From assembly GCA_964388715.1 (NCBI GenBank), contig CAYMBN010000006.1, forward strand, positions 1 through 64,000: a stretch of DNA of 64,000 bases, written 5' to 3'. Each line of letters begins with the position of its first letter. The first letter of the stretch is position 1. Below the pieces are notes generated by a model. The model did no database searches, was not told where the DNA came from, and saw nothing but the letters and a program-made list of their open reading frames with translations. The translations under genes were made by a program, and so were the position numbers. This document shows, in pieces, positions 2,144-47,166 of the stretch. Source of the DNA: an uncultured Methanosarcinales archaeon (GTDB lineage: Archaea; Nanobdellota; Nanobdellia; Woesearchaeales; CAYMBN01).

Positions 2144-2742
2144 AAATGATGAAGTGTGTTGATTGTGGTTCTGATAATAAGGATGATTCTAAATATTGTG
2201 AACAGTGTGGTGCAAAATTACCTAAAACAGAAAAATCAACAAAAAAACAAATTAGTTTTGTACTGAAGAGAAGATTGTTTCCTTTTAGTGCTTTATATGA
2301 TGTTTATGATGAAAGAAATCAGTTAGTTTATATGGTGAAATTTAAGTTTAGGGGTTATGAAATATTAAATAAAAATAAAGAACTTGTTTTGAAAGTCAAA
2401 ACAAAAAAATTAATACAATTTAAACCTGAATATGAAATATTTGAAGTTAATAGGAAAATAGGTTCTGTTAAAGCAGTATTAAGGTTTATGAAGCTGGAAT
2501 ATGATATTATGGATGTGGATGGAAGAGTTATTGCAGATGTTATTGAAAGGAGAAAGTTGTTTAAAAGGTCAACGTTTATATTTAGATGGGATCAAAAAGA
2601 ACAGATTGGTGCTTTAATTCATAATATATGGGGTAGAAAGTATCTTCTTGAGTTGGATACAAGTAAATTGAATCAAAATCTTGGATTAGCTGCTTCTGTG
2701 GTTCTAGCTTCAAAAATAGCAAAAAGATATAATAATCATTAA
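2140..2742 (+). CDS. zinc-ribbon + LURP-one/scramblase-like beta-barrel protein
   Basis: N-terminal CxxCG...YCxxCG ribbon, then repeated beta-strand pattern ending in a hydrophobic helix. Confidence 0.6.
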   Translation: MKMMKCVDCGSDNKDDSKYCEQCGAKLPKTEKSTKKQISFVLKRRLFPFSALYDVYDERNQLVYMVKFKFRGYEILNKNKELVLKVKTKKLIQFKPEYEIFEVNRKIGSVKAVLRFMKLEYDIMDVDGRVIADVIERRKLFKRSTFIFRWDQKEQIGALIHNIWGRKYLLELDTSKLNQNLGLAASVVLASKIAKRYNNH

Positions 2743-2779
2743 TAAGGTTTATAAATACAAAAATAATAATATATTCAAA

Positions 2780-4075
2780 ATGGCAAAACCAGGTGATCAT
2801 GTAAAAATTAGTACTTCTGAGACAATTATTGAAGGAACTCTTATGCCTTCTGTTCATAAAGATACTGTTATTGTTAAACTTGATAATGGATATAATCTTG
2901 GTGTGAGCGGTAGTAAGATTAAGAAGATTGAGGTTGTTAAGGTTCATAAAGAAGTAAAAGGAAAGGCAAAGAAAGTTAAACAAGATCAAAAATTACCTAA
3001 GATTTCTATTTTACATACAGGTGGTACAATTGCTTCTAAGGTAGATTATAAAACAGGTGGTACAAAACCACAGTTTAGTCCTGAAGAATTGCTTGCAATG
3101 ATACCTGAGATTAAAACAATTGCTCATATCAAAAGTAGGCTTGTTAGGAATATTTGGTCACAAGATATGAGATTTGCTCATTATAATCTTATTGCAAAAG
3201 AAATTAAGAAAGAAATTGATCATGGTGCAAAAGGTGTTATTGTTTCGCAAGGTACTGATACAATACATTATACAGCAGCTGCATTGAGTTTTATTTTAGA
3301 GGATTTACCTGTGCCTGTTTTAGTAGTAGGTGCACAAAGGTCATCTGATAGAGGTTCAACTGATGCACATCTTAACTTGATTAATGCTGCTTATTTTATG
3401 GCAAATACTAATTTTGCAGAAGTTGGAATTTGTATGCATGAAAATTCTGATGATAAGGATTGTTTGATTTTGCCTGGAACTAAGGCTAGGAAAATGCATA
3501 CAAGTAGAAGAGATGCTTTTAGACCGATTAATACAAAACCATGGGCAAGAGTTAATTATAAAGAGAAAAAAATTAGTTATATTAAGAAAAGTTATAAGAA
3601 AAGAAATGATGCAAAGATTAAATTAATGTTGTTTAGTGATAAAATTAAAGTTGCTATTGTAAAACAACATACTAATATGTTTGCTGAGCAGTTTAAGTTT
3701 TATGAAAAATATGATGGATTGGTAATTGAGGCTACAGGGCTTGGATGTTTGCCAATAAGTGAAAAAGATGAAATTACAAAAGAATCTGGTAAGATATTTA
3801 AAGTTTTGGAAGGGATGATTAAGAAAGGTGTTATTGTTGTTGAATCACCGCAGACTATTTATGGAAGAATTAATATGAATGTTTATGAAGATCAAAGACA
3901 TGCACAAGATATTGGAATTCTTGGAAATTTATCTGATATGACAACTGAAACAACTTTTGTTAAATTAGCTTGGTTACTAAGTAATTTTAAAAAGAATGAA
4001 GTTAAAGATTTGATTAGTAAGAATTTGAGAGGGGAAATTTCTGGTAAAACTGAATCTGATACTTTTTTGATATAA
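2780..4075 (+). CDS. gatD: Glu-tRNA(Gln) amidotransferase subunit D
   Basis: KLDNGYNLG N-domain, TGGTIASKVDY, GTDT, GAQRSSDRGS, RKMHTSRRDAF. Confidence 0.95.
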   Translation: MAKPGDHVKISTSETIIEGTLMPSVHKDTVIVKLDNGYNLGVSGSKIKKIEVVKVHKEVKGKAKKVKQDQKLPKISILHTGGTIASKVDYKTGGTKPQFSPEELLAMIPEIKTIAHIKSRLVRNIWSQDMRFAHYNLIAKEIKKEIDHGAKGVIVSQGTDTIHYTAAALSFILEDLPVPVLVVGAQRSSDRGSTDAHLNLINAAYFMANTNFAEVGICMHENSDDKDCLILPGTKARKMHTSRRDAFRPINTKPWARVNYKEKKISYIKKSYKKRNDAKIKLMLFSDKIKVAIVKQHTNMFAEQFKFYEKYDGLVIEATGLGCLPISEKDEITKESGKIFKVLEGMIKKGVIVVESPQTIYGRINMNVYEDQRHAQDIGILGNLSDMTTETTFVKLAWLLSNFKKNEVKDLISKNLRGEISGKTESDTFLI

Positions 4076-4649: not shown

Positions 4650-5071
4650 AAATCTTTCATGTATTCTTTCATCTTTTTGACATATTCTTTTACTTCTGCA
4701 ATTACTTTGTCATTAACCATGTTTTCTTTTGCATAATTAATAATGGGCCTTACTGATTCTATCTTTATGCCAAAACGTTCCATCCATTTATGCCTAGAAA
4801 ACATCCATAAATGAAAATCACCAGTAGTATCTTCGTTTTGAATTAAATAAACAACATTTATTCCAAGTACTTCTTTCATACCTTTTCTCATTTTACAAAG
4901 TAATTTAGAAAATTCTTGTGCTTCTTCATCTGTAAATTCTGCAACTGATTTTATCTTCCTTACAGTTGCAATAGAAAAAAAACCAGGAATAGGAACTTCC
5001 CAATCTTGATGAATATCAAAAAGTTTTGTTACAATTACTTTATCATTTGGGAATATATTTTTACTTGTCAT
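4646..5071 (-). CDS. HIT-like nucleotide hydrolase family protein
   Basis: QDWEVPIPGF and degenerate HIT region FHLWMFSR; size fits. Confidence 0.6.
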   Translation of the reverse strand: MTSKNIFPNDKVIVTKLFDIHQDWEVPIPGFFSIATVRKIKSVAEFTDEEAQEFSKLLCKMRKGMKEVLGINVVYLIQNEDTTGDFHLWMFSRHKWMERFGIKIESVRPIINYAKENMVNDKVIAEVKEYVKKMKEYMKDF

Positions 5072-5342
5072 CTTTCAACTTTTTAACAACTTTCTTAAAA
5101 GCTTCAACTTGTTTTTCAGTTAAATTTTTCCACTTAACATATTTTGCTTTTATGTCACGAAGAAAAGCATTATCTTTATAGAACTCCTCAGGAATATCAA
5201 ACATCTTTTTCATCTTAGGATCTTTAATCTCACCTTTCATATCATGTTTTTGACAATCATAACACAAAGCATATCTTTGCCTATGGGAAATTAAAACATA
5301 ATTCTTTTTGCATCTGTAACATAATTGTTTATATTTTGGCAT
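5061..5342 (-). CDS. small Zn-finger hypothetical protein
   Basis: CYRC...CYDC pairs. Confidence 0.7.
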   Translation of the reverse strand: MPKYKQLCYRCKKNYVLISHRQRYALCYDCQKHDMKGEIKDPKMKKMFDIPEEFYKDNAFLRDIKAKYVKWKNLTEKQVEAFKKVVKKLKDDK

Positions 5343-5419
5343 TATGTATGATTAATTAGTAGTTATTTAATAATGTTTTTGTCAAAAAACATAAAAACCC
5401 TGGATTATTCCTGTTTTGT

Positions 5420-15407: not shown

Positions 15408-16274
15408 ATGGGGAAATATTTATTCACAAACTCACTAGGTAGCTTTGTATTTGATGAAAAGCTTAAACTAGTTGATAAAGGAGAAGAGAAAAAGCTTAGT
15501 AAGAAGTATAAGGATGCTATTAAAACAGATGATCCAAAAATTGTAAATGGGATCTTGAGATTATTTAAAGAGCAAGCTAAGAAGTTTTATGAGCCTAATT
15601 TAAAGTTTACAAAGCAGAAAGTAAAGGATTCTGTTAATTCTGATAATTTGGTTGTGCAGACAATTGATAATATTGAAGAAATTGATAAAGCTGCTAATTT
15701 ATTGGTTAAAAGGTTAAGAGAATGGTATGAACTTTATAATCCAGAGTTTTCCAAAGGTATTGCATCACATGATAAATTTGTTGAATTGATTCTTGAAAAG
15801 GTGAGTAAGAAGAAGAATTCAATGGGTGCTGAGTTAAGTAAAGAGGATTTAAAGCCAATAATGTCTTTAGCTAAGAAGATTAATGAGTTGTATAAGTTTA
15901 GAGAAGAACAGAAAAAATATCTTGAAAAGATTATGAAAAATAATTATAAGAATCTTACAGCTGTTGCAGGTGTTTTGATTGGAGCAAAATTGTTAGCGCA
16001 TGCTGGTTCATTGAAAAAATTAGTGTTATTTCCTGCTTCAACAATACAATTGTTAGGAGCTGAAAAGGCATTGTTTAGGCATATTAAAACAAAAGCAAAA
16101 TGTCCTAAATATGGATTAATTGTAAATCATCCTATTGTCTCTCAAGCCAAGAAGAAAGGTAAAGCTGCAAGAGCTGTAGCTGATAAAATTAGTATGGCTG
16201 TTAAAATTGATTATTTTAAAGGGAAGTTTATTGGTGATAAACTAAGGAAAGGTTTGGAGAAAAGGTTTGGATGA
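15408..16274 (+). CDS. nop5: Nop5 (Nop56/58) box C/D sRNP core protein
   Basis: RLREWY...PE, PASTIQLLGAEKALFRH, PKYG, GKAAR. Confidence 0.93.
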   Translation: MGKYLFTNSLGSFVFDEKLKLVDKGEEKKLSKKYKDAIKTDDPKIVNGILRLFKEQAKKFYEPNLKFTKQKVKDSVNSDNLVVQTIDNIEEIDKAANLLVKRLREWYELYNPEFSKGIASHDKFVELILEKVSKKKNSMGAELSKEDLKPIMSLAKKINELYKFREEQKKYLEKIMKNNYKNLTAVAGVLIGAKLLAHAGSLKKLVLFPASTIQLLGAEKALFRHIKTKAKCPKYGLIVNHPIVSQAKKKGKAARAVADKISMAVKIDYFKGKFIGDKLRKGLEKRFG

Positions 16275-17758
16275 AAACTGAACAAATCATCAAAAAGTTT
16301 GCTCTTGATAAGACAACTTGGACATTTAAAGGATTTCATGGTCTTCCATTTACATTTTATTATATTGGTTATGGGTCATTGAAGTGGTGTAAAAAGTTTT
16401 ATGGTGATCAATGTAAAAAGTCTATGTTCTTTGCAAGTAAAGATTATATAAGATGGTATTGGCCTGATGAAGATATGAGACGATTGAGAAAGTTACTGAT
16501 TAAAAATGTAAATAAAGATGATAATTATTTAAAAAAGATGAGAACAGATTGGGCAAAAAAGCTCAGAGAATTTAATAAAGTTTTAGAAAAGATAAGTAAA
16601 ACAGACTTAAGTAAACTTAATGATAAAGAATTGCTAGAGTTATATGATGAGTTTCTTGTTAAATATATGGAAGAGTTTGGCATTGTTATGACTGTTCAAG
16701 ATGCTTTTTCAATGTATTCTTCTGAGTTTTTAGAGCCTGCCTTTGTAGAAGTTTTGGAAAAACAAGATAAATTAGACAAATTTACTTATTATTATACTAA
16801 ATTACTTTCACCTGTTGAAGATTCATTTATTTCAATTGAAAAGAAGTCAAGGCTAAATATTTTGAAGGAAGTTGAGAAGAATGGTTTTGACTCAGATAAA
16901 GTAAAAAATATACTTAAAGAACATCAAAAAAAGTTTTTTTGGGTTAGAAATAACTATGCAAAACAGCCTGTTTTGGATGTTAAGTTTTTTGTGGATGAAA
17001 TAAAGAATATGATTAAAGAAGGTGTTAAGGCTGAGAAAGAATTGAAAAAGATGGATGATGAAATTAAAGAGATTGTTGAGGAAAAAAAGAAGATAATAAA
17101 GGAGCTTAAGTTAAGTAAAGAGTTTGTTAATTTGATTAAAATAACTGAAAATTTTAGTTATATTCAAGATGAAAGGAAAAAGTATGTTCTTATTGCAAAC
17201 CATTATCAAAGATTGTTTATGAAAGAGATTTCCAAAAGAAAGAAATTGCCTATTAAGATGGTTGAATATCTTGTTTATCCTGAAATAAAGCAAAGAATGT
17301 TTGACAAACAAAAGTTGAAGAAAAGGTATGATTCTTGTGTATGTATACAGGATGATTCTGGTTTTTATGTTTATGAAGGAGAAGAAGTTGATAAATTACA
17401 TGATAAATTGTTTGGTTCTGATAAAGATAAGAATATTACTGAATTAAAAGGTTTATGTGCTTCAAAAGGTAAAGCAAGAGGTACTGTTAAGATTGTCCAG
17501 AAAACACATGATTTAGTTAATTTCAAAGAAGGAGATATTTTGCTTTCTTCCATGACAAGGCCTGAGATGGTTGTTGCTATGAAAAAAGCAGCTGCAATTG
17601 TAACTGATGAAGGTGGAATCACTTCACATGCTGCGATTGTTTCACGAGAGTTGGGTAAACCATGCATAATTGGTACAAAGAAAGCAACAAGTGTGTTTAA
17701 GGATGGTGATATTGTTGAAGTTGATGCTGATAAAGGAGTTGTAAAGAAAATAAAATGA
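16271..17758 (+). CDS. helical domain + C-terminal PEP-utilising mobile (phospho-His swivel) domain protein
   Basis: TDEGGITSHAAIVSRELGKPCIIGT...VEVDADKG; no ATP-grasp or TIM-barrel domain. Confidence 0.88.
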   Translation: MKTEQIIKKFALDKTTWTFKGFHGLPFTFYYIGYGSLKWCKKFYGDQCKKSMFFASKDYIRWYWPDEDMRRLRKLLIKNVNKDDNYLKKMRTDWAKKLREFNKVLEKISKTDLSKLNDKELLELYDEFLVKYMEEFGIVMTVQDAFSMYSSEFLEPAFVEVLEKQDKLDKFTYYYTKLLSPVEDSFISIEKKSRLNILKEVEKNGFDSDKVKNILKEHQKKFFWVRNNYAKQPVLDVKFFVDEIKNMIKEGVKAEKELKKMDDEIKEIVEEKKKIIKELKLSKEFVNLIKITENFSYIQDERKKYVLIANHYQRLFMKEISKRKKLPIKMVEYLVYPEIKQRMFDKQKLKKRYDSCVCIQDDSGFYVYEGEEVDKLHDKLFGSDKDKNITELKGLCASKGKARGTVKIVQKTHDLVNFKEGDILLSSMTRPEMVVAMKKAAAIVTDEGGITSHAAIVSRELGKPCIIGTKKATSVFKDGDIVEVDADKGVVKKIK

Positions 17759-19038
17759 AAGCTGAAGAAGTTAAGGAAAAAATTAGAGAATTAACATGGG
17801 AAAAATGGCTTCAGAGACACTTTGATCCGTTAGTAACTTCATTTTTTACAGAAGGATTTTATGAAAAATCATTTGAAAAAATAGGAATTCCTAATATGAA
17901 AGGTAAAGCGTCATTATTTCAGGAAAGTGTTTGGTATGAAAGTAAAGAAGTATGGGCTCATGCTGTTGAACTGTTAGAAGTTTATTTAAAGAACCATACA
18001 ATGTTGGATGTATCAAATTTACTTGAAAAATTTTATGAACAAAAAAAGAAACATATTCAATATCTTGTTAAACAAAACGGAAATCCTATTGAGAATTTAA
18101 AGGAGATTTATGAAATTTTAAAATCATGTACAACATTCATATGGGTAGCACATGCATTAGAACAAGTTTTCATGAGAAGGCTAAAACAGGAAGTTCCAAA
18201 ATATGTTAAGAAAGATGTTGATAAATTTATAGGAGATGCAAGTTTTCCAAAGAAAAAGAATGTAAACATGTTAATGGAAGAAGCAATGCGAAAAGGTGAA
18301 GATCCAGAAAAGATTGTTAAAGATTATGGGTGGGTAAAAGTTCGTTGCACTTTTGAAGAACCTTTTAGTGTTGATGATATTAAAAAGTTAATAAAGGAAT
18401 TAAAGCCAACTAAAACAGTAAAAAAAGTAGATATACCTAAAGAACTTCAACCTTTATTTAATGATGTACAAGAGCTAGTATATTTTCGTACTGCAAGAAC
18501 AGATATTTTTTATGAACTTTTGTTTTTATCACGACCGATCTTTAAAAGAGTAGCTGAATTTTACAAAATACCATTTTCTGAATTTCCTTATTACACTGTT
18601 CAAAGTTTAATTAATGGAAAACCTAAAAAGTTTGGGAAAAAATATTCGTTTGCACAATATGAAGATAATCATTATTTTGGGGAAGAACCTATTTTGGAGG
18701 ATGAAGTAGTTAAAGAAGTTGATTATGTAAAAGGAACTGTTGCATATAAAGGAATAATAAAAGGTATTGTAAAAATTGTTAGAATAGAAACAGAATTAGA
18801 TAAAGTAAAACAAGGAGATATCTTAGTGACACAAATGACTTTCCCTTCTTTTATCACTGCTATGCATAAGGCATCTGCATTTGTGACAGATGAAGGTGGA
18901 ATTACGTGTCACGCTGCAATTGTTTCACGGGAAATGCATAAACCATGCATAATTGGTACAAAAATTGGTACAAAGGTTTTTAAAGATGGGGATTTGGTTG
19001 AAGTTGATGCTGATAAAGGTATTGTGAGGAAATTATGA
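17755..19038 (+). CDS. helical domain + C-terminal PEP-utilising mobile (phospho-His swivel) domain protein
   Basis: TDEGGITCHAAIVSREMHKPCIIGT...VEVDADKG. Confidence 0.88.
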   Translation: MKAEEVKEKIRELTWEKWLQRHFDPLVTSFFTEGFYEKSFEKIGIPNMKGKASLFQESVWYESKEVWAHAVELLEVYLKNHTMLDVSNLLEKFYEQKKKHIQYLVKQNGNPIENLKEIYEILKSCTTFIWVAHALEQVFMRRLKQEVPKYVKKDVDKFIGDASFPKKKNVNMLMEEAMRKGEDPEKIVKDYGWVKVRCTFEEPFSVDDIKKLIKELKPTKTVKKVDIPKELQPLFNDVQELVYFRTARTDIFYELLFLSRPIFKRVAEFYKIPFSEFPYYTVQSLINGKPKKFGKKYSFAQYEDNHYFGEEPILEDEVVKEVDYVKGTVAYKGIIKGIVKIVRIETELDKVKQGDILVTQMTFPSFITAMHKASAFVTDEGGITCHAAIVSREMHKPCIIGTKIGTKVFKDGDLVEVDADKGIVRKL

Positions 19039-19694
19039 AACAAACAAAATTTCCAGGTATATTTGAAAAGAAAGGAAAACTTTACACTAGAAGTCTAATT
19101 AAGGGTAAGAAGGAATTTAGAGAAAAAATTGTTAGAGAAGGTAAGATTGAATATAAAGAATGGGATCCGAGGAGAAGTAAACTTGCTGCTGCTATTCTAA
19201 AAGGACTTAATCAAATAGGTATTAAAGAAGGACATGTTGTGCTTTATTTAGGTGCTTCACATGGTTATACACCTTCATATATTTCTGATATTATTGGTAA
19301 AGGAGGTTTTATGTTTGCACTTGATTTTGCACCAAGAGTTGTGCGAGATTTAGTATATGTTTGTGAGCAGAGAAAAAATATGACTCCTTTGTTATCAGAT
19401 GCAAATCAACCAATGAGTTATGCTGATAAAGTAACCCAGGTTGATGTGATCTATCAAGATATTGCGCAAAGAAATCAAGCAGGAATATTTTTGGATAATA
19501 TTGATTATTTTTTGAAACCAGAAGGATTTGGTATTCTTGCTGTTAAATCAAGAAGTATTGATATTGCTAAAAAGCCTTTTCAGGTTTATCAAGATGTTAA
19601 AAAAGAATTAGAGAAAAAGGTTACAATAGTTGATTTTAGAAAGCTTGATCCATTTGAAAAGGATCATTGTTTGTTTGTTGTGAAGAAGAAATAA
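19035..19694 (+). CDS. flpA: fibrillarin rRNA/tRNA 2'-O-methyltransferase
   Basis: WDPRRSKLAAAI, VLYLGA, YQDIAQ.NQ, KSRSID, LDPFEKDH. Confidence 0.95.
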   Translation: MKQTKFPGIFEKKGKLYTRSLIKGKKEFREKIVREGKIEYKEWDPRRSKLAAAILKGLNQIGIKEGHVVLYLGASHGYTPSYISDIIGKGGFMFALDFAPRVVRDLVYVCEQRKNMTPLLSDANQPMSYADKVTQVDVIYQDIAQRNQAGIFLDNIDYFLKPEGFGILAVKSRSIDIAKKPFQVYQDVKKELEKKVTIVDFRKLDPFEKDHCLFVVKKK

Positions 19695-19707
19695 AAAAAT
19701 TTATATA
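19694..19707 (+). promoter_or_regulatory. BRE/TATA promoter of the Cys leader-tRNA-Cys unit
   Basis: A-run then TTTATATA (19700-19707), about 24 nt before the ATG at 19731. Confidence 0.7.
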
Positions 19708-19730
19708 TTAGCATAAATTTCTAATTAGTT

Positions 19731-19760
19731 ATGAAACAAACAATAGATTGTTGTTGTTGA
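19731..19760 (+). CDS. putative cysteine-sensing leader peptide MKQTIDCCC
   Basis: ATG AAA CAA ACA ATA GAT TGT TGT TGT TGA, at leaderless spacing from the TATA and directly upstream of tRNA-Cys/cysK/cysS. Confidence 0.7.
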   Translation: MKQTIDCCC

Positions 19761-19789
19761 ATTCTTTCATTGTTTTAGTTTTAACTCTA

Positions 19790-19914
19790 GGGAGTGTTGC
19801 CAAGCGGCTAAATTTTCAAGGCTAGGTTTTCAAGGCTAGGGCGGTCGGCTGCAACCCGACTAATCAAGGGTTCGAGACGTTTATTCTAAAGACGCGAAAT
19901 TCCCTTCACTCCCT
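19790..19914 (+). tRNA. tRNA-Cys(GCA) with two non-canonical introns (19812-19839 in the D arm, 19877-19900 in the T loop)
   Basis: Acceptor GGGAGTG/CACTCCC + U73; anticodon arm GTCGG-CTGCAAC-CCGAC; T stem AAGGG/CCCTT; removing both BHB-bounded inserts restores a canonical cloverleaf. Confidence 0.92.
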
Positions 19915-19982
19915 TCTTAACAATGAAAGGTCAAAAAAGCAAAACTTAATAAATAATCTAAACTAAAATAGAGGTAATCAAA

Positions 19983-20903
19983 ATGCAAAAAGCGAGATTA
20001 TTACAATTGGTTGGAGGAACTCCTGTAGTTAAATTAACTAGAGTTAATAATACAAAAGCCAAAATATTTGCAAAACTTGATTCCATGAATCCAAGTGGTA
20101 GTATAAAAGATGTTATGGCATGGTACATGATGCAAAGGGCAGAAGAAAAAGGTCTTCTAAAACCTGGCCAGAGAATAATTGAAGTTACAACAGGAAATAC
20201 TGGAATAGCTTTCGCAATGTTATCTGCAATAATGGGATATAAATTTACAGCAGTTATGCCAGAACATATGTCAAAAGAAAGAATGCAAATGATGCGAGCT
20301 TTTGGTGCAGAATTGGTTTTAACATCTGAAAAAGAGGATGTTGCAGGTGCTATTAAAAAATATAATGAATTAGTTAAGAAAAATCCAAATGCATGGTTCC
20401 CAAGACAATTCCAAAACAAAGATAATGTAAGAGCACATATGGAAATAACAGGTAAAGAAATCCTTAATCAGATTTATGATAAGATTGACGCTTTTGTTGC
20501 AGGAGCAGGTACAGGTGGAACAATAATGGGTACTTCAAAAATATTAAGAAAAGCCTATCCAAATATAAAGATTGTTGCTGTTGAACCTGCTGAATCAGCT
20601 GTGTTGTCAGGGAAAGAGCCTGGACCGCATGGAATCCAAGGAATTGGTGAAGGTTTTATACCTGATCTTTTAGATCCAAAACAACTTGATGAAGTTATTG
20701 TAATCAAAACTGAAGATGCAAAGAAAATGGCTGCGCGTTTAGCAAAAGAAGAAGGGATATTATGTGGAATTAGTTCAGGTGCAAATGTGTTAGCATCATT
20801 ACAAATTGCAAAAAAACTTGGAAAAGATAAGGTTGTTGTTACTGTTATACCTGATAGAGGGGAAAGATATTTAAGTATGGATTTTTTAGGTGGTAAACAA
20901 TGA
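19983..20903 (+). CDS. cysK: cysteine synthase (O-acetylserine sulfhydrylase family, PLP)
   Basis: NPSGSIKD, TTGNTGIA, GAGTGGT, HGIQGIG.GF.P, GISSGAN, PDRGERYLS. Confidence 0.92.
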   Translation: MQKARLLQLVGGTPVVKLTRVNNTKAKIFAKLDSMNPSGSIKDVMAWYMMQRAEEKGLLKPGQRIIEVTTGNTGIAFAMLSAIMGYKFTAVMPEHMSKERMQMMRAFGAELVLTSEKEDVAGAIKKYNELVKKNPNAWFPRQFQNKDNVRAHMEITGKEILNQIYDKIDAFVAGAGTGGTIMGTSKILRKAYPNIKIVAVEPAESAVLSGKEPGPHGIQGIGEGFIPDLLDPKQLDEVIVIKTEDAKKMAARLAKEEGILCGISSGANVLASLQIAKKLGKDKVVVTVIPDRGERYLSMDFLGGKQ

Positions 20904-22303
20904 CACTAAAATTATACAATACTTTTACTAGAAAAAAGCAAGAGTTTAAACCGATTAAAAAAGGAGTTGTTCATATGTATACCTGTGGTCCTACTGTCTA
21001 TGATTATGCACATATTGGAAATTTTAGAGCTTATGTTAATTATGATATCCTAAGAAGATATCTTAAATTTAAAGGGTTTAAAGTAAAACAGGTCATGAAT
21101 ATCACAGATATAGATGATAAAACAATAAAAAAATCACAAGAAGAAGGAAAATCAATAAAAAAATTTACAGAATTCTATGAAAAAGAATTTTTAAAAGATC
21201 TAAAAGCACTTAATATAGAAATGCCTGAAATTATGCCACATGCTTCAGATCACATTAAGGAAATGGTTGAATTAATTCAAAAATTAAGCAGAAAAGGTTA
21301 CACATACGAAGCAAATGGTTCAATTTATTTTAAAATTTCAAAATTTAAAGATTATGGAAAACTAGCAAAGCTTGATATGGAAAGTCTCAAAGAAAATGCA
21401 GATGGTAGACTTGCTGATGCTGATGAATATGAAAAAGAAGATGCACGTGATTTTGTATTATGGAAAGGATATAACAAATCAGATGGAGGTGTTTTTTGGA
21501 ATCCAATAATTGGAAAAGGTAGACCTGGTTGGCATATTGAATGTTCTGTAATGTCAATGAAATATCTGGGGAAAACATTTGATATTCATACTGGTGGTAT
21601 TGATTTAATATTTCCACATCATACAAATGAGATTGCGCAATCAGAAAGTGCCACTGATGAGAAGTTTGTTAATTATTGGATACACAATGAACATTTACTT
21701 GTTAACAACAAAAAAATGAGTAAATCACTGGAAAATTATTTCACTTTAAGAGATTTGTTAAAGAAAGGGTATAAACCAATTGCTATTCGTTATCTTTTAC
21801 TTTCAGCGCATTATAGGCAAAAACTTAATTTTACATTAAAAGGTATTGAAGCAGCTGAAAAAACAGTACAAAAGTTCTATGATTTTATTGATAAGTTAAA
21901 AGAATATAAGGATGGAACAGATAATTCAAAAATTAACAACATTCTAGAAAAAACAAAATCATCTTTTGAACAAGCAATGGATGATGACTTAAACACATCA
22001 AAAGCACTAGGAATAATCTTTGACATGATGAGTGAGATTAATAAATTATTGATGAAAAAAGATATGAATAAGAAAAATGCAGAAAAAGTATTGAAGGTTA
22101 TGAAAGAGTTTGATCTTGTTCTTGGTGTTATGGAACATAAGGAAGAGAAGACTCCTAAAAAAGTTATTGATCTTATTGAGAAAAGGGAGGAAGCTCGTGA
22201 AAAAAAGGATTTTAAGATTGCTGATAAGATTCGTGAAGAGATAGGTAAGTTGGGTTATATTATTGAGGATACTAAAGAAGGAGTAAAGTGTAAGAAAAAA
22301 TGA
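20900..22303 (+). CDS. cysS: cysteinyl-tRNA synthetase
   Basis: CGPTVYD..HIGN, GRPGWHIEC, DLIFPHH.NE, KMSKS. Confidence 0.97.
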   Translation: MTLKLYNTFTRKKQEFKPIKKGVVHMYTCGPTVYDYAHIGNFRAYVNYDILRRYLKFKGFKVKQVMNITDIDDKTIKKSQEEGKSIKKFTEFYEKEFLKDLKALNIEMPEIMPHASDHIKEMVELIQKLSRKGYTYEANGSIYFKISKFKDYGKLAKLDMESLKENADGRLADADEYEKEDARDFVLWKGYNKSDGGVFWNPIIGKGRPGWHIECSVMSMKYLGKTFDIHTGGIDLIFPHHTNEIAQSESATDEKFVNYWIHNEHLLVNNKKMSKSLENYFTLRDLLKKGYKPIAIRYLLLSAHYRQKLNFTLKGIEAAEKTVQKFYDFIDKLKEYKDGTDNSKINNILEKTKSSFEQAMDDDLNTSKALGIIFDMMSEINKLLMKKDMNKKNAEKVLKVMKEFDLVLGVMEHKEEKTPKKVIDLIEKREEAREKKDFKIADKIREEIGKLGYIIEDTKEGVKCKKK

Positions 22304-22734
22304 TATTTATTGGAAGTGATCATGCTGGGTTTGAGGAAAAGGAAAGAATAAAAAAGTTTCTTATTGATAATGGTTATGAAGTAGAGGATTGTGGGCCATT
22401 AGAATATGATAAAGAAGATGATTATCCTGACTTTGCATTAAAAGTTGCTGAGAAAGTTAGTGAGAGTGGTGAGAAAGGTATTTTGGTTTGTGGAACAGGA
22501 CAAGGTGTTTGTATTGCTGCAAATAAAGTTCCTGAAATAGTTGCAGCTTTGTGTTGGGATAAAGAGTCTGCGGTACATGCAAAGCAGCATCTTAATGCTA
22601 ATATTATTACTTTTTCTGCTAAGATTGGTTGTGGAGAGGAGATTGTTAAAGCTTGGTTAGATGAGAAGTTTAAAGAGCATGAAGAAAGGCATACAAGAAG
22701 ATTGAGTAAGATTAAAGAGATTGAGAAAAGATAA
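22300..22734 (+). CDS. rpiB: ribose-5-phosphate isomerase B family
   Basis: GSDHAG, DYPD, CGTGQG..IAANK, RH.RR. Confidence 0.93.
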   Translation: MIFIGSDHAGFEEKERIKKFLIDNGYEVEDCGPLEYDKEDDYPDFALKVAEKVSESGEKGILVCGTGQGVCIAANKVPEIVAALCWDKESAVHAKQHLNANIITFSAKIGCGEEIVKAWLDEKFKEHEERHTRRLSKIKEIEKR

Positions 22735-47062: not shown

Positions 47063-47166
47063 GGGAACATAGCTCAGACTGGGAGAGCACTACGCTGAAG
47101 ACGTAGGTGTCCTGGGAAGTTAATTGGAATACAATTAACTCAGGAATTCAAATCCCAGTGTTCCCA
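47063..47166 (+). tRNA. tRNA-Phe(GAA) with a 30-nt intron at position 53/54 (47117-47146)
   Basis: GGGAACA/TGTTCCC acceptor, GCTC/GAGC D stem, CTACG-CTGAAGA-CGTAG, CTGGG/CCCAG T stem; TATA at 47030-47037. Confidence 0.95.

Follow-up and report, generated by a model that had tools for sequence, protein, structure and literature searches.

Leader peptides whose translation is sensed through the ribosome are a textbook bacterial device. The described system closest to the locus analyzed here is that of the mycobacterial polycysteine leaderless short open reading frames (sORFs), the "Cys ribulon" (Canestrari et al., bioRxiv 10.1101/834739), in which, according to the accessible part of the preprint, an sORF with a run of cysteine codons lies at the 5' end of the transcript upstream of cysteine-metabolism genes, the pausing of ribosomes on the cysteine tract acts as the sensor, and a duplex with the end of the sORF forms part of the device. 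Cysteine runs near the stop codon are also described for the actinobacterial cys and cbs leader peptides, for which the available text reports no terminator hairpin and proposes tna-like, Rho-dependent (factor-dependent) termination (Seliverstov et al. 2005, PMC1262725). A full-text literature search found poly-Cys leader ORFs in Actinobacteria only, and it returned no archaeal poly-Cys or amino-acid leader peptide, which is not proof of absence in print.

The present work concerns a locus in a 64,000-nucleotide stretch of archaeal DNA (the window; contig CAYMBN010000006.1, positions 1 to 64,000) in which a 9-codon ORF ending in three Cys codons is followed by a twice-interrupted tRNA-Cys gene and then by the cysteine genes cysK and cysS, and in which an exact inverted repeat of 11 nucleotides (nt) brackets the tRNA gene. 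Like the Cys ribulon, the locus places a Cys-run sORF upstream of cysteine-metabolism genes, probably at the 5' end of the transcript, and the same roles are proposed here for ribosome pausing on the Cys tract, as the sensor, and for a duplex with the end of the sORF, as part of the device. The locus thus resembles a poly-Cys leader ORF in outline, and it is not assignable to the same mechanism. We regard it as a candidate archaeal poly-Cys leader ORF, and we regard the helix that the repeat is predicted to form, referred to below as the clamp, as either a lineage-specific accessory or a product of chance. The Cys-run mini-ORF recurs in four DPANN-type loci, before cysE, cysK/M, tRNA-Cys and cysS, and this recurrence makes leader-peptide attenuation in Archaea testable on defined sequence.

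The poly-Cys leader ORF and its recurrence

Relatives of the locus were taken from a contig scan anchored on cysS, which yielded 80 loci (designated by L numbers); because cysS is ~45-60% identical across domains, 72 of these were bacterial or otherwise unhelpful, and the 8 archaeal loci together with the window constitute the 9 archaeal sources used below. The features of the window on which the argument depends are the following.

19700-19707, + strand: TATA-like box, TTTATATA, starting 31 nt before the sORF ATG
19731-19760, + strand: leader sORF of 9 codons, MKQTIDCCC and a stop, with three TGT codons directly before TGA
19758-19784, + strand: post-stop blocks TGAATTCTTTCAT and TTTAGTTTTAA, common to the leader of locus L004
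19764-19774, + strand: 5' arm of the repeat, its first 7 nt within the conserved post-stop block
19790-19914, + strand: tRNA-Cys, twice interrupted, with anticodon GCA at 19851-53 and discriminator U73
19919-19929, + strand: 3' arm of the repeat, 4 nt past the tRNA discriminator and holding an ATG at 19923-25
19923-19949, + strand: mini-ORF 2, MKGQKSKT and a stop, with its start in the 3' arm and its end 34 nt short of cysK

Words made up of three Cys codons and a stop occur nine times in the 150,225 bases of the 9 archaeal sources, counting both strands, and an in-frame ATG accompanies four of the nine, which are the leader sORFs of the window, L004, L015 and L008. All four lie in leaders on the cysS strand. 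The L004 sORF, MQKIICCCC and a stop, is followed by cysE and, further on, by cysS; the L015 sORF ends in SCFCCC and a stop 28 nt before cysM/K, with cysS beyond; and the L008 sORF ends in RCDCCC and a stop, with a structured RNA and then tRNA-Cys downstream. All four loci have a TATA-like 8-mer whose first base lies 29-31 nt ahead of the ATG, the L015 spacer being all A/T, so that the spacing is not unique there. The leader ORF invoked in an earlier reading of the window from its letters alone (the sequence-only reading) looks real: in three other archaeal loci an ORF ending in three or four Cys codons plus stop is found on the cysS strand with a TATA box at this distance. Of the features by which polycysteine sORFs are recognized, the Cys run of at least 2-3 codons and the same-strand position before cysteine genes are both present in the window; L015 and L004 have this position too, and for L008 it is less clear.

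The leaders of the window and of L004 are moreover homologous. Positions 19696-19784 of the window align with positions 4507-4597 of L004 with 70 of 95 columns identical and a score of 60, which none of 300 shuffles reaches (maximum 43) and which compares with scores of at most 31 for 508 control pieces of L004, and this despite the fact that the cysS proteins of the two loci are just 56% identical. The part that is shared beyond the stop includes TGAATTCTTTCAT and TTTAGTTT(T)AA. The antisense strand of the sORF is also open for 13 codons in both loci (MKEFNNNNLLFVS and a stop at window 19729-19770, - strand; MKEFSNNNKLFFA and a stop at L004 4538-4579, - strand); these antisense ORFs are probably a by-product of the conserved sense features. 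In L008, the interval 2770-2990 between the poly-Cys sORF and the tRNA-Cys promoter is a GC-richer, strongly structured RNA with a predicted fold of -73.3 kcal/mol (z = -4.7; 0 of 200 shuffles as stable), for which no Rfam family scored above chance.

Inspection of the interval between the sORF and the tRNA revealed no TATA-like box, and the Shine-Dalgarno (SD) sequence ahead of cysK is what an internal cistron should carry. Because a TATA box precedes the sORF, none is seen between sORF and tRNA, and cysK has its own SD, we infer a single transcript that begins at the sORF AUG or right beside it, includes the tRNA and continues into cysK-cysS, with the sORF translated from it. The position of the TATA box would probably make the sORF leaderless.

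The inverted repeat and the predicted helix

The two arms of the repeat, CTTTCATTGTT at 19764-19774 and AACAATGAAAG at 19919-19929, are 100% complementary over 11 nt and lie 144 nt apart. Since the leader ORF runs from ATG 19731-33 to TGA 19758-60, the 5' arm begins at the fourth base past the stop, as the sequence-only reading had described, and the tRNA-Cys sits between the arms, 15 nt from the 5' arm and 4 nt from the 3' arm. The pairings of the 5' arm with the sORF itself, which that reading had put forward as alternatives to the clamp, exist in imperfect form (I19, 19731-39 with 19762-70, 89%; I3, 19727-44 with 19769-86, 72%). The 11-mer has 10 matches with at most one mismatch, compared to 6.2 +/- 2.4 expected, the only exact ones being the two arms themselves; an origin as a repeated or mobile element was rejected, given that the 11-mer does not recur in dispersed copies, that there is no visible target-site duplication and that the left arm is of ancestral origin. 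A second exact 11-bp inverted repeat (I6, 19666-76 with 19734-44) pairs the last fibrillarin codons with sORF codons 2-5, and is thus relevant only to transcripts that read through from fibrillarin; together with the repeat around the tRNA it provides four related segments, among which several pairing combinations are possible.

RNAduplex predicts that the exact repeat is the inner part of a longer, interrupted helix of 21 bp between 19748-19774 and 19919-19942, which also appears in minimum-energy folds. Its core has 12 bp, one of them a G-U pair (19763-74 with 19919-30); past a 2-nt bulge follow 4 bp which span the stop codon (19757-60 with 19931-34); and past a small internal loop an outer part of 5 bp overlaps the first Cys codon (19748-52 with 19938-42). 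Mini-ORF 2, which has no SD, begins within the 3' strand, and cleavage by RNase Z would put a new 5' end 8 nt from it. Downstream of the 3' arm the sequence reads GTCAAAAAAGC, with no T-run and no terminator. The junction between the clamp and the acceptor stem shows no bulge-helix-bulge on inspection of sequence and fold, and excision by the splicing endonuclease EndA is therefore not indicated there.

The effect of a translating ribosome on the clamp was modelled by folding the transcript 19731-20010 under a mask that extended 15 nt to either side of the first P-site base; the footprint is an assumed one, and the resulting probabilities are equilibrium predictions. In the free transcript the helix forms with probability 0.98 and the acceptor stem of the tRNA with probability 0.99. 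Placing the A site on the first, second and third Cys codon gives the helix a probability of 0.98, 0.70 and 0.02, respectively, and placing it on the stop codon gives 0.00. The geometric idea that a ribosome at the stop codon masks the 5' arm, while one stalled on the Cys codons masks less of it, thus holds in the folds, but the predicted switch point falls between the second and third Cys codons and not between a Cys stall and the stop. The AUG of mini-ORF 2 (19923) has an unpaired probability of 0.00 when the helix is closed, which rises to 0.66-0.73 when the ribosome occupies the stop or the third Cys codon. The alternative pairings of the 5' arm with the sORF have probabilities of 0.03 and 0.32 in nascent RNA which lacks the 3' arm, and of 0.00 in RNA that includes it. 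Excision of the tRNA in silico leaves leader and trailer paired, with a free-energy difference (ddG) of -12.6 kcal/mol.

Two routes by which the clamp could have acted on cysK were considered and rejected. Sequestration of the SD in the mycobacterial manner is not predicted in the window, where the partner of the helix is 19919-42 and not the SD at 19971-75, whose predicted accessibility does not change. A relay in which translation of mini-ORF 2 opens a hairpin at the cysK start (19952-59 with 19995-20002) fails in the same way, in that the hairpin has a probability of 0.04-0.36 and the SD is again unchanged.

The interrupted tRNA-Cys gene and its surroundings

The tRNA-Cys gene escapes standard finders because it is interrupted twice: ARAGORN reports 0 tRNAs in the window, and Rfam reports nothing at this position, E-value mode included, its only find across the whole window being a tRNA-Phe. 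The acceptor halves lie at 19790-96 and 19907-13, with the discriminator T at 19914, and the interruptions are as follows.

~19812-19839, + strand: D-loop intron, ~28 nt, holding a 14-nt tandem duplication
19877-19900, + strand: T-loop intron at position 59/60, with a canonical bulge-helix-bulge

When both introns are removed in silico, ARAGORN calls a tRNA-Cys (gca) on both of the intron-removed versions, whereas there is no call on the unspliced gene or with the D-loop intron alone removed, and removal of the T-loop intron alone leads to a spurious tRNA-Leu call in intron mode. In a broader trial of boundaries a tRNA-Cys was called for 3083 of 5184 combinations. The T-loop intron has a motif consisting of the T stem followed by a 4-bp helix (TTCG/CGAA) with 3-nt bulges AGA and ATT, which emerges unprompted in minimum-energy folds, and without the intron the T loop reads TTCGAGT, exactly as in the tRNA-Cys of L008. 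The boundaries of the D-loop intron were deduced by setting it against the D arms in the tRNA-Cys genes of L015 and L008 and are ambiguous by register, because GGCTA is present three times; its bulge-helix-bulge, judged by eye, is only a relaxed one. The 14-nt tandem duplication (window 19806-19847) consists of GGCTA plus 9 nt, and as GGCU can self-pair through G-U pairs, the D-loop intron may be removable in one or two steps.

Interrupted tRNA genes are found elsewhere in the window and in its relatives. The tRNA-Phe (GAA) at 47063-47166 on the + strand, which Rfam matches at 44.4 bits and ARAGORN misses, carries an insertion of ~30 nt where its T stem meets the T loop. A TATA box of its own lies ~33 nt upstream, a T6 run adjoins its 3' end, and its leader-trailer helix is of at most 2 bp. 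A scan of GC islands for further hidden tRNAs in the window found, by eye, only the two known tRNAs to look non-coding. The L036 tRNA-Cys (4907-5089) has insertions past position 9, in the anticodon stem, past position 38 and at 59/60, the last site being common to L036 and the window, and the L008 tRNA-Cys (3025-3162) has two insertions in the anticodon arm; the lineage seems to fragment its tRNA-Cys gene repeatedly. Directly downstream of cysS in L001, an intron-containing tRNA at 5108-5241 (Rfam 48.4 bits) and what appears by eye to be a second tRNA at ~5275-5390 are likewise missed by ARAGORN.

Beyond the tRNA the window continues with the genes of cysteine synthesis and charging.

19971-19975, + strand: cysK SD, GAGGT, read from the sequence
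19983-20903, + strand: cysK, cysteine synthase A (TIGR01139, 393.4 bits against a cut-off of 350.95; Pfam PALP match)
20900-22303, + strand: cysS, cysteine--tRNA ligase (Pfam tRNA-synt_1e, E = 9e-115), its start overlapping the cysK stop
22300-22734, + strand: rpiB-family isomerase, its start overlapping the cysS stop

The rpiB-family gene is probably in the same operon as cysS because of this overlap. The GC content of the window is 30%, archaeal marker genes lie upstream (Nop5, 15408-16274; fibrillarin, 19035-19694), and the database proteins closest to the window cysS, its own entry excluded, are 64% identical and named Woesearchaeota; the host is an AT-rich, DPANN-type (Woesearchaeota-like) archaeon, and the locus is probably the head of a cysteine operon. 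The usual archaeal pairing of Nop5 and fibrillarin is split in the window by two consecutive ORFs of 495 and 427 aa (16271-19038, + strand), in each of which the sole domain is a C-terminal PEP-utilizer mobile domain. In L003, fibrillarin (1647-2303) is followed directly by cysS (2333-3724) across a spacer of 30 nt, and relative to L003 the sORF, tRNA-Cys and cysK of the window constitute an insertion.

A tRNA-Cys gene lies upstream of cysS, adjoining the cysteine genes or at most ~3 kb from them, in five of the nine archaeal sources, in varying arrangements.

Window: sORF, tRNA-Cys, cysK, cysS
L015: tRNA-Cys, sORF, cysM/K, cysS
L036: tRNA-Cys with four or more insertions, cysE, cysS
L008: multiply interrupted tRNA-Cys ~3 kb upstream of cysS
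L011: tRNA-Cys 23 nt before cysS

L004 has the sORF followed by cysE and no tRNA. The suggestion that the tRNA is itself part of the regulatory switch does not fit these arrangements, as the gene follows the sORF in the window, precedes it in L015 and is absent in L004.

Competing explanations and comparison with known systems

The explanation that we tentatively prefer, and to which we give somewhat less than an even chance, is that the sORF is a conserved poly-Cys sensor, the tRNA its cargo, and the helix a lineage-specific accessory found in the window. The TATA box would drive a probably leaderless 9-codon ORF which ends in three Cys codons and a stop. A ribosome on the Cys codons awaits Cys-tRNA(Cys), and the operon would provide its three ingredients, namely the tRNA, cysteine and the enzyme that charges the one with the other, so that the sORF would sense the operon's own end product. 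The conserved sensor would consist of the sORF and the block just past its stop, and the tRNA would be cargo, since its position relative to the sORF varies among the relatives. The helix would join the RNA directly beyond the 3' end of the tRNA to the post-stop block and the final part of the sORF, closing the tRNA into its own domain and tethering the leader fragment to the 5' end of the cysK-cysS mRNA made by RNase Z cleavage; because its 5' strand starts inside the footprint of a ribosome that occupies the stop or the last Cys codon, such a ribosome would open it. In the fold models the immediate effect would be that the first AUG and the trailer's 5' end become exposed or buried, leaving the ribosome site of cysK unaffected; the helix may also influence how the RNA is processed, how stable it is or how strongly it is expressed. 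A tna-like blockade of a factor entry site past the stop would agree with the conservation of the post-stop block and with a Cys run that directly abuts the stop, and the archaeal factor in such a blockade would be FttA/aCPSF1.

It is possible, though on balance doubtful, that the match between the arms is a coincidence, the 5' arm being fixed by the conserved post-stop block and its 11-nt complement having arisen by chance in a spacer 3' of the tRNA that is rich in TTGTT and AACAA at 30% GC, so that the helix would be an in-silico one with no selected role. The window contains 17 exact inverted repeats of at least 11 nt with a gap of 3-200 nt, compared to 11.1 +/- 3.1 in dinucleotide shuffles, 5 of 100 of which reach 17, and an 11-mer repeat as such is therefore ordinary in this DNA. 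A test specific to the geometry, in which 60 nt on each side of the 125-nt element were compared, is in contrast unfavourable to coincidence: at least 11 exact bases occur in 16 of 2000 flank shuffles (0.008) and at 7 of the 2551 positions of the real window with the same geometry, for an exact-match probability of 0.003-0.008, and the observed duplex energy of -20.6 kcal/mol is reached in a fraction of 0.014 of the flank shuffles; when the 5' segment is fixed and the 3' segment shuffled, P = 0.041. Complementarity also extends past the core by a G-U pair, 4 bp and 5 bp, and the 5' strand is located exactly where leader-peptide devices put their regulatory pairing. The repeat is thus uncommon enough for attention and insufficiently rare to stand alone. 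A number of results weigh against the helix as an accessory with a role, and several of them favour coincidence. The duplex energy is matched at 197 of the 2551 real positions in the window; I6, a further exact 11-mer repeat, lies 30-100 nt away, within the same 300 nt, which indicates that the local TTGTT/AACAA-rich composition favours such matches; and the fold of the whole region is not unusually stable (z = -1.8; 12 of 200 shuffles at least as stable). The first 7 nt of the 5' arm (CTTTCAT) are kept in L004, where there is neither a tRNA nor a significant partner, and must therefore be constrained by something else; the reverse complement of the post-stop block is a common gene-start word, and TGAATTCTTTCAT with at most two mismatches has 18 matches compared to 10.5 expected, many of which read as gene starts on the opposite strand. 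No homologue of the 3' arm was detected in L004, L015 or L008, where 160, 173 and 241 of 300 shuffles reach the respective scores; a 13-nt match of the 3' arm to the L004 SD region (AAAGGT[C/G]AAAAAA) was rejected as homology for this reason, being reached by 160 of the 300. The post-stop block likewise has no significant partner in these relatives (best duplex P = 0.30 in L004, 0.86 in L015 and 0.93 in L008), and the suggestive position of the best L004 duplex, on the SD, AUG and first codons of cysE, is to be read with its P of 0.30. Among six other tRNAs tested for leader-trailer complementarity, four of them tRNA-Cys near cysS, none has a comparable transcribed helix, and general leader-trailer clamps in the lineage were rejected on this ground: the tRNA-Phe of the window, the L011 and L036 tRNA-Cys and one L001 tRNA are unremarkable (length P 0.45-0.91), the L015 tRNA-Cys has an 8-mer match of A/T only (P 0.08; duplex-energy P 0.41), and the L008 tRNA-Cys has a 9-nt match of A/T only within its promoter (P 0.026; duplex-energy P 0.076). 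The sequence-only reading had made the presence of a complementary leader and trailer in relatives that keep the sORF the test of its proposal, and such a pair is absent in L015, L004 and L008; all three differ from the window in gene order, and as no sORF-keeping relative shares that order, this test bears on the clamp indirectly. Finally, the cysK SD and AUG are predicted to be unpaired with a probability of 0.33-0.48 whatever the mask state, and with accessibility this flat no output on cysK is predicted.

The same flatness counts against the strong form of the device suggested by the sequence-only reading, which is unlikely; in this form the position of the ribosome on the leader would set the clamp, the clamp would decide on read-through into cysK-cysS or on maturation of the tRNA, and the tRNA would itself be a functional component of the regulator. 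The dependence of the helix probability on the ribosome mask, the existence of the alternative pairings I3 and I19 and an operon logic in which tRNA, cysK and cysS are encoded together all fit such a switch, but the alternative pairings are weak (0.03 and 0.32, and 0.00 with the 3' arm), no U-run or terminator lies past the 3' arm, the tRNA is differently placed in L015 and absent in L004, and neither locus has a clamp. A full Cys-tRNA(Cys) homeostat, in which the leaderless poly-Cys ORF would sense charged tRNA-Cys and a paused ribosome would open the clamp and so gate tRNA maturation, the use of the cysK-cysS mRNA 5' end, or both, is distinctly improbable. A processing stem of the rRNA-operon or split-tRNA kind, in which the leader-trailer helix would present a bulge-helix-bulge to EndA so that the tRNA is cut from the mRNA, deserves scarcely any credence: a leader-trailer helix exists, the genome clearly relies on EndA at non-canonical sites, the window having tRNA introns in D and T loops, and the L036 and L008 tRNA-Cys carry two to four insertions, but the junction sets 15 nt opposite 4 nt with no 4-bp helix and two 3-nt bulges, TTAG (19775-78) cannot pair with CCTT (19912-15), and the genuine T-loop bulge-helix-bulge shows what the motif looks like in the same gene. 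It is very improbable, too, that CTTTCAT is the start of an antisense small ORF, or that a protein-binding site around GAATTC accounts for the conservation, the repeat being irrelevant to RNA structure in either case. The antisense frame is open for 13 codons in both the window and L004, and words like the block are enriched at gene starts; against this, the antisense promoter in the window would fall inside the GC-rich D arm of the tRNA, the sense features (Cys run, stop and TATA spacing) but not the CAT recur in L015 and L008, and the genomic context of the antisense strand differs between the window and L004.

Set beside other known arrangements, the preferred reading of a poly-Cys sensor with tRNA cargo finds partial parallels. 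The tRNA genes that are co-transcribed with mRNAs, in mitochondrial tRNA punctuation and in bacterial operons of the tRNA-tufB type, resemble the window in that excision by RNase P and RNase Z would create an mRNA 5' end; unlike them, the tRNA of the window is cognate to the enzymes of its operon and lies behind a leader that is probably translated. Plant pararetroviruses use a ribosome shunt in which only a few nt separate the end of a short ORF from the foot of a long stem with a structured element inside; the shunt is eukaryotic and scanning-dependent, the direction of regulation would be wrong for feedback, and we know of no evidence for ribosome shunting in archaea. An attenuator of the trp/his type was rejected, there being no T-run past the 3' arm and the alternative pairings having probabilities of 0.03 and 0.32; to our knowledge, archaeal polymerases do not use hairpin terminators. 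A T-box riboswitch was also rejected, an Rfam scan of 19650-20000 by E-value having returned four chance-level matches and no T-box.

Archaeal rRNA-operon processing stems and the leader-trailer helices of split or permuted tRNAs (PMC7714728, PMC10515664, PMC3978253) share with the window the inverted repeats that flank a stable RNA and the long-range helix in its precursor; as described in the accessible text of these papers they carry EndA bulge-helix-bulge sites, which the clamp does not. The actinobacterial cys and cbs leaders are similar in that Cys codons cluster beside the stop and no terminator hairpin is present; in the account available of them they are bacterial and include no tRNA gene, and an archaeal counterpart would need FttA/aCPSF1. 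For this factor a Rho-like position on the elongation complex, in steric competition with a coupled ribosome, is put forward in the available text as a hypothesis only (PMC11616081), and aCPSF1 is described as working with U-tracts (PMC8716108).

If the helix proves to be a chance match, the locus still shows that heavily interrupted tRNA genes are hidden from standard finders. If it is functional, it would couple the translation of a leader both to the cognate tRNA's maturation and to the creation of an mRNA 5' end, which has not been described before, and the homeostat, if true, would stand as the first amino-acid attenuator acting through the ribosome to be described in Archaea, as well as the first attenuator whose regulatory loop contains a cognate tRNA gene. 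The locus departs from the Cys ribulon, as the accessible part of the preprint presents it, in several ways: the host is an archaeon and the promoter of the TATA type; the Cys codons of Ms5788A pair with the SD region of the next gene, whereas the predicted partner in the window lies 40-60 nt upstream of the cysK SD; and the candidate regulatory loop, known here from sequence alone, would enclose a tRNA-Cys and bring cysS into the regulated set.

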